This document shows positions 3,614-55,927 of a DNA stretch of 64,000 nt, piece after piece. How positions within the stretch are numbered: position 1 is the first letter of the stretch; each line of letters begins with the position of its first letter. A program made the translations under genes and the position numbers. Under the pieces are notes generated by a model that worked only from the letters and a program-made list of their open reading frames with translations, did not search any database and had not been told where the DNA came from. The DNA is from Escherichia phage HY03. The stretch lies in sequence record NC_031047.1, one strand, 5' to 3'.

Positions 3614-3774
3614 ACAGAGATATGACGTTAGAAGAGGCCAAGGCTAAAGCAAATGAAGCACTGGATTTGCTTCTTAAAATTGGCAGTAAAATGATGGAAG
3701 AAAATGAGAAATATATCCAGGAAAACAAAATTCCCGATGGTCCATTAGTAGGCAAAAGGAAATCACATGATTGA
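3610..3774 (+). CDS. hypothetical small protein (GTG start; alternative ATG at 3622)
   Basis: 54-codon ORF filling the gap 3613..3767; stop overlaps next ATG. Confidence 0.3.
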
Positions 3775-12056: not shown

Positions 12057-12314
12057 ATGAAATATGTTAATCGTTCTATCGCAGCATTAGTATTAGCAGT
12101 GTCTTTAGTAGGATGTACTGATGCTGATAATGCAACCAAAGTTTTGTCTTCAAGCGGTTTTACTAATATTGAAATCACTGGATATAATTGGTTCGGTTGC
12201 TCTGAAAATGATTTCCAGCATACTGGATTTCGTGCTATTGGGACCTACTGGGCAGAAAGTAGAAGGAACAGTATGTTCTGGACTATTCTTCAAGGATTCG
12301 ACTATCCGTTTTAA
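12057..12314 (+). CDS. putative lipoprotein (39.1 position)
   Basis: 85 aa; signal peptide plus lipobox LVGC. Confidence 0.55.
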   Translation: MKYVNRSIAALVLAVSLVGCTDADNATKVLSSSGFTNIEITGYNWFGCSENDFQHTGFRAIGTYWAESRRNSMFWTILQGFDYPF

Positions 12315-12387: not shown

Positions 12388-13938
12388 ATGATTAAGAATG
12401 AAATTAAAATTCTGAGCGATATTGAACATATCAAAAAGCGTAGCGGCATGTACATTGGCTCTTCTGCTAATGAAATGCATGAGCGCTTTCTGTTTGGTAA
12501 ATGGGAAAGTGTTCAGTATGTACCTGGTCTTGTTAAGCTTATTGATGAAATTATCGATAACTCAGTAGATGAAGGTATTCGTACTAAGTTTAAATTCGCA
12601 AATAAAATTAATGTTACTATTAAAAACAATCAAGTAACAGTTGAAGATAACGGTCGCGGTATTCCACAGGCGATGGTTAAAACACCTACCGGTGAAGAAA
12701 TTCCTGGTCCTGTTGCTGCGTGGACTATTCCAAAAGCAGGTGGTAACTTCGGTGATGATAAAGAACGCGTCACTGGCGGTATGAATGGTGTTGGTTCTAG
12801 TTTGACAAACATTTTTTCTGTGATGTTTGTCGGTGAAACTGGTGATGGTCAAAATAATATTGTAGTTCGTTGTTCAAATGGCATGGAAAATAAATCATGG
12901 GAAGATATTCCCGGAAAATGGAAAGGAACTCGTGTTACTTTCATTCCTGATTTTATGTCATTTGAAACTAATGAGTTGTCCCAAGTTTATCTTGACATTA
13001 CATTAGATCGTCTCCAGACACTTGCTGTTGTTTATCCTGATATTCAATTTACCTTTAATGGTAAAAAGGTTCAGGGCAATTTTAAGAAATATGCACGCCA
13101 ATATGATGAACATGCTATCGTTCAAGAACAAGAAAATTGTTCTATTGCGGTCGGTCGTTCACCGGATGGTTTTCGTCAATTAACATACGTCAATAACATT
13201 CACACTAAGAATGGTGGTCATCACATTGACTGTGTTATGGATGATATTTGTGAAGACCTTATTCCACAAATCAAACGTAAGTTCAAAATTGATGTAACTA
13301 AAGCACGTGTCAAAGAATGTTTGACTATCGTTATGTTTGTTCGTGATATGAAAAACATGCGATTTGATTCTCAAACTAAAGAACGACTTACTTCTCCTTT
13401 TGGTGAAATTCGTAGTCATATTCAACTTGATGCTAAAAAGATTTCACGTGCTATTTTAAATAATGAAGCAATTTTAATGCCGATTATTGAAGCTGCTTTG
13501 GCTCGTAAATTGGCGGCAGAAAAAGCAGCAGAAACTAAAGCAGCTAAAAAGGCTTCTAAAGCTAAGGTTCATAAACATATTAAAGCGAATCTTTGCGGTA
13601 AAGATGCTGACACTACTCTTTTCTTGACTGAGGGTGATTCGGCTATCGGATATCTTATTGATGTTCGTGATAAAGAACTTCACGGCGGTTATCCATTGCG
13701 TGGTAAAGTTCTTAATAGCTGGGGTATGTCATATGCTGATATGCTTAAAAACAAAGAACTATTTGATATTTGCGCAATCACTGGATTAGTTCTTGGTGAA
13801 AAAGCGTTTGAAGAAAAAGAAGACGGTGAGTGGTTTACTCTCGAACTAAATGGTGATACAATTATTGTAAATGAAAATGATGAAGTACAGATTAATGGTA
13901 AATGGATAACAGTAGGTGAATTACGAAAAAATCTATAA
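12388..13938 (+). CDS. 39: DNA topoisomerase II large subunit gp39 (N-terminal ATPase part of the split gene)
   Basis: 516 aa from ATG 12388 (SD GAGGA); GHKL ATPase motifs; ends where mobA begins. Confidence 0.95.
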   Translation: MIKNEIKILSDIEHIKKRSGMYIGSSANEMHERFLFGKWESVQYVPGLVKLIDEIIDNSVDEGIRTKFKFANKINVTIKNNQVTVEDNGRGIPQAMVKTPTGEEIPGPVAAWTIPKAGGNFGDDKERVTGGMNGVGSSLTNIFSVMFVGETGDGQNNIVVRCSNGMENKSWEDIPGKWKGTRVTFIPDFMSFETNELSQVYLDITLDRLQTLAVVYPDIQFTFNGKKVQGNFKKYARQYDEHAIVQEQENCSIAVGRSPDGFRQLTYVNNIHTKNGGHHIDCVMDDICEDLIPQIKRKFKIDVTKARVKECLTIVMFVRDMKNMRFDSQTKERLTSPFGEIRSHIQLDAKKISRAILNNEAILMPIIEAALARKLAAEKAAETKAAKKASKAKVHKHIKANLCGKDADTTLFLTEGDSAIGYLIDVRDKELHGGYPLRGKVLNSWGMSYADMLKNKELFDICAITGLVLGEKAFEEKEDGEWFTLELNGDTIIVNENDEVQINGKWITVGELRKNL

Positions 13939-14734
13939 TGACTTAATAGCGCGGGGTAAAACTCGCGTTTCTAAATTTAAAGGTGAAATTCACCATATCC
14001 TTCCAAGATCAATGGGAGGTTCTGATGATAAAGAAAATTTGGTAAAACTGACTTTTCGTGAACACTTTTTAGCACATTTTCTACTATATAAAATTCATCG
14101 TAATCGTGAAATGGCATATGCGATGAATAGAATGTTAAACACTGAAAAATATTTACGTTCTAGTAAATTATATGAAATTGCTAGAATTTACCATCAAAGA
14201 GCAGTATCTGAATGGTCAAAAAACTTTATGAAAGATAAAGTTTTAATGAGAAGTATTAAATCGGGTAAATGCGCCTTATTAATTAAAGGATCATTTAACC
14301 CAAAGGAATGGTGCGGTGTTAATAAAGGTGTTAAGCTTCCTGGAATTAAAGGCATGACATGCTTTAAAAATGAAAAAGGCGAAGTTTTTCGTCTTCATGT
14401 TAATGATCCACGCATTAAAGCTGAAAAATTAGTTGGTATTGGAAATACTGTTGCTGCTACTGCAAAAGCAGCTGAACTTGAAAAAGCGAAACCATGGTAT
14501 AATAAATCAGCGACAAATCCAGAGGCTGTAAAATTAATACCAAATTTATATGAATGGTACGTCACGAAATATGACCCCGATCATTATAAACGAACGGGAG
14601 TTGCTAAATGGAAATCAGTTAATAATATAACTGTGAATTCAAAATTATTCGGCCGAGCATTTAATGAATTTAAACGCGGCTGGATTCCTGATGAAAAGTT
14701 CTACGAGGTGTATAATGAAATTTGTAAAAATTGA
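13916..14734 (+). CDS. mobA: MobA HNH homing endonuclease inserted between topoisomerase segments 39 and 60
   Basis: 272 aa, MNYEKIYNDLIARG...EIHHILPRSMGGSDDKENLV...HF HNH motif; N-terminus paralogous to mobE (46885). Confidence 0.85.
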   Translation: MNYEKIYNDLIARGKTRVSKFKGEIHHILPRSMGGSDDKENLVKLTFREHFLAHFLLYKIHRNREMAYAMNRMLNTEKYLRSSKLYEIARIYHQRAVSEWSKNFMKDKVLMRSIKSGKCALLIKGSFNPKEWCGVNKGVKLPGIKGMTCFKNEKGEVFRLHVNDPRIKAEKLVGIGNTVAATAKAAELEKAKPWYNKSATNPEAVKLIPNLYEWYVTKYDPDHYKRTGVAKWKSVNNITVNSKLFGRAFNEFKRGWIPDEKFYEVYNEICKN

Positions 14735-23149: not shown

Positions 23150-23173
23150 ATTTTAAAATTTTTTCACAAAACG

Positions 23174-40030: not shown

Positions 40031-40055
40031 TTTCAAAAATTTTTTTCACAAAACT

Positions 40056-44075: not shown

Positions 44076-44351
44076 TTGCGAGGATATATGATTTTACGAT
44101 TTAAAGATACTTCTGGTGTAGTTCTTTTTACACTTCCTAATCCAAGTGAGTTAGAAGTTCCAGGACCAAATCAGCCTATTATCATTTATGGCAAAAAATA
44201 TTATACTCATAAAATGACTCGTGAGTATTTTGATAATAAAATTTCCACAGTTAAAACTTCTTCTGATTGTTATTATGATATTACTGTTTTAACGGAAGAA
44301 CAATATGAACACCTACAACCGCGCGGGCCGTCTATGCCGGGTAGTGAATAA
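44076..44351 (+). CDS. hypothetical protein (nrdA.2 position)
   Basis: 91-aa ORF. Confidence 0.45.
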
Positions 44352-44630
44352 ATACAAATCCGACTTTGATGTTAATATTCACCGTGGTACATTTAGAGCC
44401 TTTACGTCGGTAAAGATGCTGGCAGCCGGGAGGCTGCCATTGAATTATTCAAAAAAGATTTTATACGTCGAATTAAATCCGGAGAAATAACTAAAGAACA
44501 TTTAGAGCCTTTACGTGGAATGAGGCTAGGATGCACATGTAAACCAAAGCCGTGTCATGGTGATATAATAGCTCATATAGTTAACCGATTGTTTAAAGAC
44601 GATTTTCAAGTTGAGGACTTATGCAATTAA
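44305..44630 (+). pseudogene. small Cys-rich protein gene split across two reading frames; candidate pseudogene or recoding site
   Basis: N-terminal frame 44305..44490 and C-terminal frame 44397..44630 (no start codon) together resemble one small protein; the frame switch lies in the first copy of a 19-nt direct repeat. Confidence 0.4.
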
Positions 44631-52847: not shown

Positions 52848-54047
<1,200 letters not shown>

Positions 54048-54048
<1 letters not shown>

Positions 54049-54718: not shown

Positions 54719-54748
54719 GTTTACTTTATGGTAGAGTTGTGATATTAT
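54719..54748 (+). promoter_or_regulatory. T4-type early promoter
   Basis: GTTTAC 54719..54724, TATTAT 54743..54748. Confidence 0.6.
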
Positions 54749-54778
54749 AGCTCTACCAAAACAAATGAGGAAATTGAA

Positions 54779-55014
54779 ATGCTAAGTGAAAACCAATTAC
54801 TGTTAAAGAATTCCAAGAAAAAGTTAAACTATTTGCTCAGGAATTGGTAAATAAGGTTTCTGAACGATTTCCTGAAACATCGGTTCGTGTTATTACCGAA
54901 ACTCCTCGTTCAGTATTAGTAATTGTGAATCCAGGTGATGGTGATCAAATAACACATCTCAAATTGGATTTTGATGGATTAGTTGAAGCACAAAGGGTGT
55001 ATGGCGTACTATGA
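54779..55014 (+). pseudogene. small early ORF disrupted by a frameshift at an A4 run (one A short of an intact 80-codon ORF)
   Basis: ATG 54779 with SD GAGGAAA reads 24 codons to a stop; the +2 frame is open 54790..55014 without a start; adding one A at 54789..54792 joins them. Confidence 0.4.
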
Positions 55015-55349
55015 TGAATTTAACTGATATAATTGATAATTGTCTTGAAAATGATACTGGTGATCATAGAGCGCTTGATTCTGAAACAGCAAAGTTCATT
55101 AGAATAACTTTAATGAATGATACTCTGGTGAATAGTATTCATCCTTCTGTGTATGATGCTATTATTGTGACGAAGTATCCAGTTGAGCTTCACAAAAAGA
55201 TGACTGGCGCAGTTTTTATTGATAAGAAAAACCGCTTTAAAGACGGGCAGAATATAATTAGTTCTGTTATTAAAAGTATAACTAAACTTCGTCACGAAAT
55301 TTATCGTGTTGAAACTGCTAAATCTGCTTATCTGGTGATTATGAAATGA
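55011..55349 (+). CDS. hypothetical protein
   Basis: 112-aa ORF. Confidence 0.5.
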   Translation: MMNLTDIIDNCLENDTGDHRALDSETAKFIRITLMNDTLVNSIHPSVYDAIIVTKYPVELHKKMTGAVFIDKKNRFKDGQNIISSVIKSITKLRHEIYRVETAKSAYLVIMK

Positions 55350-55927
55350 AAGCGAGTACAGTACTTCAAATTGCATATTTAGTATCACAAGAATCAAAAT
55401 GTTGCTCCTGGAAAGTAGGAGCAGTAATTGAAAAGAATGGACGTATTATTTCTACCGGATATAATGGTTCACCTGCAGGTGGTGTGAATTGCTGTGATTA
55501 TGCTGCTGAGCAAGGTTGGTTGCTGAATAAGCCTAAACATACTATCATTCAAGGTCATAAGCCTGAATGTGTATCGTTTGGTTCAACTGATCGTTTTGTC
55601 TTGGCGAAAGAACACCGTAGCGCTCACTCTGAATGGTCGTCTAAAAATGAAATTCATGCTGAACTAAATGCGATTTTGTTTGCTGCACGAAACGGTTCTT
55701 CAATTGAAGGTGCTACTATGTATGTAACACTTTCTCCTTGTCCGGATTGTGCAAAAGCGATAGCTCAATCTGGTATTAAAAAGCTGGTTTATTGCGAAAC
55801 ATACGATAAAAATAAACCTGGCTGGGATGATATTCTGCGAAATGCAGGTATTGAAGTGTTTAATGTTCCTAAGAAAAACTTGAATAAGTTAAACTGGGAA
55901 AATATCAACGAATTCTGTGGTGAATAA
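55346..55927 (+). CDS. cd: dCMP deaminase
   Basis: 193 aa; zinc-binding HAE and PCxxC motifs; matches recalled T4 Cd. Confidence 0.92.
   Translation: MKASTVLQIAYLVSQESKCCSWKVGAVIEKNGRIISTGYNGSPAGGVNCCDYAAEQGWLLNKPKHTIIQGHKPECVSFGSTDRFVLAKEHRSAHSEWSSKNEIHAELNAILFAARNGSSIEGATMYVTLSPCPDCAKAIAQSGIKKLVYCETYDKNKPGWDDILRNAGIEVFNVPKKNLNKLNWENINEFCGE

Follow-up and report, generated by a model that had tools for sequence, protein, structure and literature searches.

A one-base deficit in an A tract splits the early gene cd.2 in the sequence record of Escherichia phage HY03

The closest described counterpart of the locus analysed here is gene cd.2 of bacteriophage T4 (NP_049830.1, NC_000866; an intact protein of 79 amino acids, ADJ39940.1, in T4T), an uncharacterised early gene on which a literature search returned nothing. 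The T4 record carries a misc_feature naming an early promoter, Pe133295, between cd.3 and cd.2. Classical T4 deletion work showed that the region is dispensable in the laboratory, and no strong phenotype is therefore expected from loss of the gene. In the T4 reference (NC_000866 / AF158101) cd.2 has one G too many, AAAG(G)AATTC, at a point 17 nt 3′ of the A tract that concerns us here. Its context, AAAGGAATTC (NC_000866.4 133216–133255), aligns to about 54793–54831 of the window, i.e. the 64 000-nt stretch of HY03 DNA (record NC_031047.1) that we analysed, placing the extra G at about 54809. This G was found in no other record; neither of the resequenced genomes, T4T and T4 wild, has it, and in both the open reading frame (ORF) is intact from the ATG; on these alignments it is most likely an old sequencing error. 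It is because of the extra G that the T4 reference gene is annotated from a GTG, and both this start and the N-terminal sequence 'VKNRLLLK' are probably artificial, produced by that error. Since the frameshift of the T4 reference is absent from T4T and T4 wild, database errors do occur in cd.2.

The window belongs to a T4-like (Tequatrovirus) genome, that of HY03 with 170 770 bp, and its ORF list gives the local gene order as pseT (53143–54048), cd.5, cd.4, cd.3 (to 54716), cd.2, cd.1 and cd, the last encoding dCMP deaminase (55346–55927). The succession of cd.3, early promoter, cd.2, cd.1 and cd is conserved between the window, T4, T4T and BF15 / AugustSocin, and cd.2 of HY03 shares with that of T4 its position, its Shine–Dalgarno sequence and an ATGA overlap with cd.1. 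It differs in that one A of an A5 run is missing, which puts the gene out of frame after codon 4, while T4-type alleles carry an extra TTG codon after the ATG.

The initial annotation of this stretch described a small early ORF split at an A run, an observation whose main points are borne out by both the sequence and the ORF list. From the ATG at 54779 (plus strand, as are the other elements of the locus given below) the four authentic first codons (MLSE) are followed by 19 out-of-frame codons and a TAA at 54848–54850, the 5′ fragment thus spanning 54779–54850, with 23 codons plus the stop. The second frame, −1 relative to this ATG, is closed upstream by a TGA at 54787–54789 and then open, as originally described, from 54790 to a TGA at 55012–55014 (74 codons). 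To judge from its identity to the T4 protein, its family matches and its confidently predicted fold, this stretch (54790–55014) represents codons 5–78 of cd.2 plus the stop. The frame had been said to have no start codon, but a start-type codon, TTG, is present at 54844 and opens a 56-amino acid ORF (54844–55014) that is exactly identical to a deposited HY03 protein. Adding one A to the run at 54789–54792 does yield a single ORF, of 78 codons plus stop rather than the 80 first given, and its TGA overlaps the ATG of the next gene at 55011 in the manner reported (ATGA). This next gene (55011–55349, 112 amino acids) is a cd.1 homologue whose product has the same sequence as HY03_0275 and many Tequatrovirus Cd.1 proteins.

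A comparison with T4-type relatives had been suggested as a check on the lesion, and it agrees with a one-base deficit: where the window has A4, the relatives have A5 and an ORF that is intact from the same ATG. The locus is the orthologue of the T4 early gene cd.2, and the alignments together with the allele counts given below show it to be one A short of A5 in the record. A working family member should be an uninterrupted ORF of about 76–83 amino acids starting with MLSE; homologues have 76–82 amino acids and start with MLSE or MLLSE, and the window has no such ORF at this position. Since its ORF is split after codon 4, the HY03 gene is a disrupted member of the family, and a pseudogene as written.

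The signals upstream of the ATG correspond to what had been proposed. A consensus scan recovered the early (σ70) promoter at 54719–54748, with 9 of 12 matches together with the TG, and the T4 record marks the same promoter. It comprises a −35 element GTTTAC/TTTACT (54719/54720–54725), a 17-nt spacer, a −10 element TATTAT (54743–54748) and a TG at 54740–54741 (extended −10, TGaTATTAT), and the alignment shows it conserved in T4 and relatives. The Shine–Dalgarno sequence GAGGAAA was likewise found where it had been claimed (54767–54773); its GAGG core ends 8 nt before the ATG and the motif is invariant across five aligned sequences. The −10 element is enclosed by a strong hairpin (54729–54758) with a 13-bp stem, a 4-nt loop and perfect arms GGTAGAG / CTCTACC, folding at −17.2 kcal/mol (z = −6.0 versus 200 shuffles). 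No U tract follows, and the hairpin is therefore not an intrinsic terminator; it would form in read-through RNA from cd.3, and might affect the stability or processing of that RNA. According to the T4 record, an inverted orientation was once reported for the 14 nt at its centre.

The same promoter serves another gene in some relatives. In ime09 (880–1407 of the segment compared), ELT1 and RB14 an extra ORF of 175 amino acids (phrog_3710, RB32ORF214c) sits exactly at the cd.2 start codon, taking over promoter, Shine–Dalgarno sequence and ATG, and cd.2 follows with a new Shine–Dalgarno sequence. Many relatives have this insert, which the window lacks. We considered whether RB32ORF214c might itself be cd.2 and rejected this, as in ime09, RB14 and ELT1 it is a separate ORF between the promoter and cd.2.

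After addition of one A, the product reads MLSEKPITVKEF...RVYGVL (78 amino acids) and matches Pfam DUF7320 over residues 1–77/78 (E 3.4e-34; 117.1 bits against a curated cut-off of 27 bits) and phrog_1504 over positions 1–77 of 77 (E 4e-40). Many phage records contain an uninterrupted ORF whose product agrees with it at every one of the 78 residues (100% identity), and residues 7–78 of the repaired protein share 94% identity with T4 Cd.2. By these sequence measures, the pattern of a frameshifted cd.2 is far beyond chance. The N-terminal MLSE, encoded 5′ of the A run, is nearly invariant among 25 homologues, which identifies ATG 54779 as the true start of the family.

The AlphaFold model of the remainder of Cd.2 (74 amino acids; pLDDT 90.6) predicts one helix, at residues 5–26, plus a four-stranded sheet. 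A Foldseek search of this model against the PDB gave nothing significant (best E 0.23; RnlA N-terminal domains with a TM score of only about 0.6), the PDB holds no sequence relative of Cd.2, and PADLOC returned no match for it. A weak Pfam match to DinI (E 0.048) fell below threshold and was rejected. The family is tiny, with 18 representatives at 50% identity. Separately, four long proteins (405–1440 amino acids) match the Cd.2 profile in three to nine separate stretches each, which suggests that they contain several copies of a module similar to the part of Cd.2 that forms the strands.

In the HY03 record the 56-amino acid remnant (AKJ72915.1 / YP_009284246.1) is named a 'putative olfactory receptor-like protein'. 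This name is meaningless, the locus being a frameshifted cd.2 (DUF7320). According to the model, about two thirds of the single helix, which is predicted to pack on the sheet, would be missing from the remnant. Protein clusters name this remnant, an 85-amino acid variant of 39.1 (HY03_0200) and a 61-amino acid fragment of nrdA.1 (HY03_0257) only from HY03, and none of the three exact sequences had a match in the contig index.

The split could be functional if −1 frameshifting, transcriptional slippage, a non-canonical start or reinitiation at TTG 54844 were to yield full-length or nearly full-length Cd.2. The shift required is indeed −1, re-pairing of an A-site tRNA from AAC to AAA is known from other slippery sites, and TTG 54844 precedes the short ORF's stop by 4 nt, in an overlapping arrangement with that TAA (TTGGTAA). 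However, the zero-frame codons AGT GAA AAC CAA form no X XXY YYZ heptamer, and re-pairing of a P-site tRNA from GAA to TGA is impossible. A stretch of 102 nt that starts at the ATG and takes in all that lies 3′ of the run shows no more folding than its shuffles (−13.2 kcal/mol, z = 0.02), and there is no Rfam match within 4 kb. A run of four A's is much too short for polymerase slippage, and neither TTG 54844 nor ATT 54796 has a suitably placed Shine–Dalgarno sequence; the 56-amino acid product would moreover be deprived of most of the helix in the predicted structure. Nor is the shift conserved, as over 300 relatives have the whole protein in a single frame, and the frameshift of the T4 reference is opposite in direction and at another site. 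None of the hallmarks of programmed −1 frameshifting (a slippery heptamer, downstream RNA structure, a conserved two-frame arrangement) is thus found here, on which grounds we reject programmed recoding, and we regard a functional split of any of these kinds as highly improbable.

The rarity of the A4 allele was assessed with 40-mers centred on the run, such that any 28-base seed must span it. Apart from the window, A4 occurred in one of 50 697 records of the phage collection (BYEP01) and in no IMG/VR contig, JGI metagenome contig or GTDB genome, whereas A5 was present in at least 300 phage records, four IMG/VR contigs and five JGI metagenome contigs, i.e. two A4 sequences as opposed to at least 309 A5 ones. 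A query for A4 on the T4-type haplotype found nothing in the phage collection. The initial annotation held that relatives which share the A4 run and make a validated short peptide would speak against a lesion: an A4 relative exists in BYEP01, but its record (OR757453.1) has no annotation at this position and it brings no validated peptide. Its cd.2 has the identical A4 tract and the same resulting frameshift as the window, while the spacer between Shine–Dalgarno sequence and ATG (AACAA versus ATTGA in the window) and several further substitutions differ, which places the A4 of BYEP01 on a different local haplotype.

A homopolymer lesion at the very 5′ end of a gene is the classic position for a contingency switch, and the occurrence of A4 on two local haplotypes could likewise be taken to mean that the tract turns cd.2 on and off at high frequency. 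High switching rates, however, typically need tracts of seven to eight nucleotides or more, whereas this one has only four or five; a phase-variable locus would combine a long tract with both lengths being common, and here neither is the case, A4 being outnumbered by A5 as above. Relatives outside Tequatrovirus encode MLSEQP or MLSETP without such a run, and the A tract is therefore not a conserved device. We consider phase variation the faintest of the possibilities weighed here, and recoding and phase variation, which we reject, are very unlikely even when taken together. Among the origins offered in the initial annotation for the homopolymer indel, pseudogenisation and sequencing error accordingly both stand, while phase variation is unlikely given the short tract and the rarity of A4.

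The choice is then between a deletion in the phage DNA and an undercall by one base in the deposited consensus of a phage that really has A5 and an intact cd.2. An undercall would fit an A4 that is essentially unique among hundreds of relatives and set in flanks otherwise identical to intact alleles, and the T4 reference itself has an unrelated spurious frameshift in this gene, corrected in later T4 genomes. Homopolymer miscalls are the signature error of 454 sequencing. The sister phage HY01, which has the same style of locus tags, was sequenced on the 454 GS-FLX Titanium platform and assembled with Newbler (PMC5201272), a fact that concerns HY01 itself. The same A4 in an independent record argues against an undercall, but that record, BYEP01, has oddities of its own: an additional A interrupts rIIB, and gp32 is missing its end, the annotated gene continuing into frd.3.

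The distribution of indels across the window bears on the same question. ORF scans against T4 and BYEP01 revealed no frameshift in any large gene of the window, with rIIB and gp32 intact, and the assembly is therefore not riddled with indels. Only three single-base indels separate the window from whichever of T4, BYEP01 and ELT1 align, namely GG to GGG at 12242 (gene 39.1) and two intergenic changes, A5 to A4 at 23155 (between motA.1 and motA) and T6 to T7 at 40040 (upstream of frd.3); counting the cd.2 run, there are four window-specific sites, although BYEP01 shares the A4 of cd.2. All four lie outside ORFs of at least 150 amino acids, which hold about 70% of the homopolymer runs of five or more, and random placement would put all four outside them in only about 1% of cases (about 0.3^4). 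Such placement, with no large gene affected in 64 kb, is the pattern expected after selection and favours a real mutation. Submitters, however, commonly repair only those frameshifts that break recognisable large genes, which would mimic this pattern. Three of the four indels are in runs of five or more and the sites other than cd.2 are also changes in homopolymer length, which speaks for an undercall in cd.2; pyrosequencing errors, however, do not typically take the form of the GG to GGG change seen at 12242.

Frameshift alleles that are real do circulate in this lineage. The nrdA.1 gene of the window (44293–44627) is split by a complex patch at about 44395–44402 (TTTTGGGGAAATTACG to TTTAGAGCCTTTACG, net −1), and a 40-mer covering this patch is also found in SG1, pSe_SNUABM_01 and ELT1, with no annotation at that position; since it is common to three independently sequenced phages, this allele is certainly real and inherited. 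Weighing all of this, we judge a real replication-slippage mutation of the Streisinger type, in a dispensable accessory gene, to be the most likely cause of the A4 run in HY03, and give it about an even chance of being right. A sequencing or assembly artefact is a serious contender, which we put somewhat short of even. We infer, rather than observe, that the deletion is present in the phage DNA as well as in the record and that it arose by slippage.

Several other differences from T4 came to light in the window. The gene 39.1 homologue (12057–12314) encodes a predicted lipoprotein (signal ...LVGC), and its GGG, where T4, BYEP01 and ELT1 have GG, alters about the last 23 residues, a genome-specific frameshift in a small ORF; a 40-mer spanning this indel (12242) was found in no other phage record. 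In the T4 reference a different change, an extra T further upstream (equivalent to window 12129), truncates T4's own 39.1. At 13916–14731 the window has an intact ORF of 272 amino acids with a weak HNH match, where T4 has a short defective mobA remnant (3654–3767) followed by gene 60.1; a string of single-base indels (window 14049–14256) distinguishes T4 from the window, and the ORF matches T4 DNA in three different frames. In rIIA, compensating +1/−1 indels 20 nt apart (window 17041 and 17061) set the T4 reference apart from the window, BYEP01 and ELT1, representing either a real compensated frameshift of T4 or another pair of reference errors.

Further lesions of cd.2 exist in public data. 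In BYEP02, a sibling of BYEP01 isolated on the same host, the gene contains a 77-nt tandem duplication whose copies differ at one base (positions 415–568 of the segment compared), and a metagenomic scaffold has TT to TTT in mid-gene. BYEP01 and BYEP02 are either heavily mutated stocks or weak assemblies. Selection for loss of cd.2 on particular hosts, for example because Cd.2 is sensed by host defence, with the A5 tract as a mutational escape hatch, would explain these independent disrupted alleles (A4 in HY03 and BYEP01, the BYEP02 duplication and the scaffold insertion). In the protein clusters, however, shortened versions of cd.2 show no obvious excess over those of the adjacent cd.3, for which reason we did not adopt recurrent adaptive loss; host-selected loss is a novel idea and, in our estimation, a distinct long shot.

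If the record is taken as it stands, the slippage mutation would act as follows. Transcription from the early promoter 3′ of cd.3 would make cd.2 the first gene of a cd.2–cd.1–cd string. With one A lost from the A5 tract that spans codons 4 and 5, ribosomes starting at ATG 54779 would read 19 wrong codons and stop at the TAA (54848–54850), some 160 nt ahead of the normal stop. On this sequence, cd.2 would thus be a null allele or, at best, would give a 56-amino acid fragment without most of the helix. As its ATG overlaps the cd.2 stop, cd.1 would normally be translationally coupled to cd.2; termination about 160 nt before cd.1 would abolish the coupling through ATGA and leave cd.1 reliant on its own weak AGGG-type site. 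These consequences for the expression of Cd.2 and cd.1 are read from the arrangement of the signals and are to be understood as predictions.

This accessory gene, known but uncharacterised, has either an ordinary one-base frameshift or an error in its record, and no new mechanism is involved. The finding carries little biological weight and is mainly a point of annotation, concerning the misnamed remnant of HY03 and the artificial GTG start of the T4 reference. If the deletion is real, HY03 would be a natural cd.2-null phage and the gene dispensable on the host of isolation, which would be mildly useful for assigning a function to the uncharacterised early protein Cd.2.

Among known systems, the HY03 allele also resembles the classical A-run frameshifts of T4 that arose by Streisinger slippage, with hot spots in rII and the e gene. 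The classical frameshifts were selected and genetically verified, whereas the HY03 change is known only from one deposited consensus sequence; in both, a single base is lost from a short A run and an early out-of-frame stop follows.
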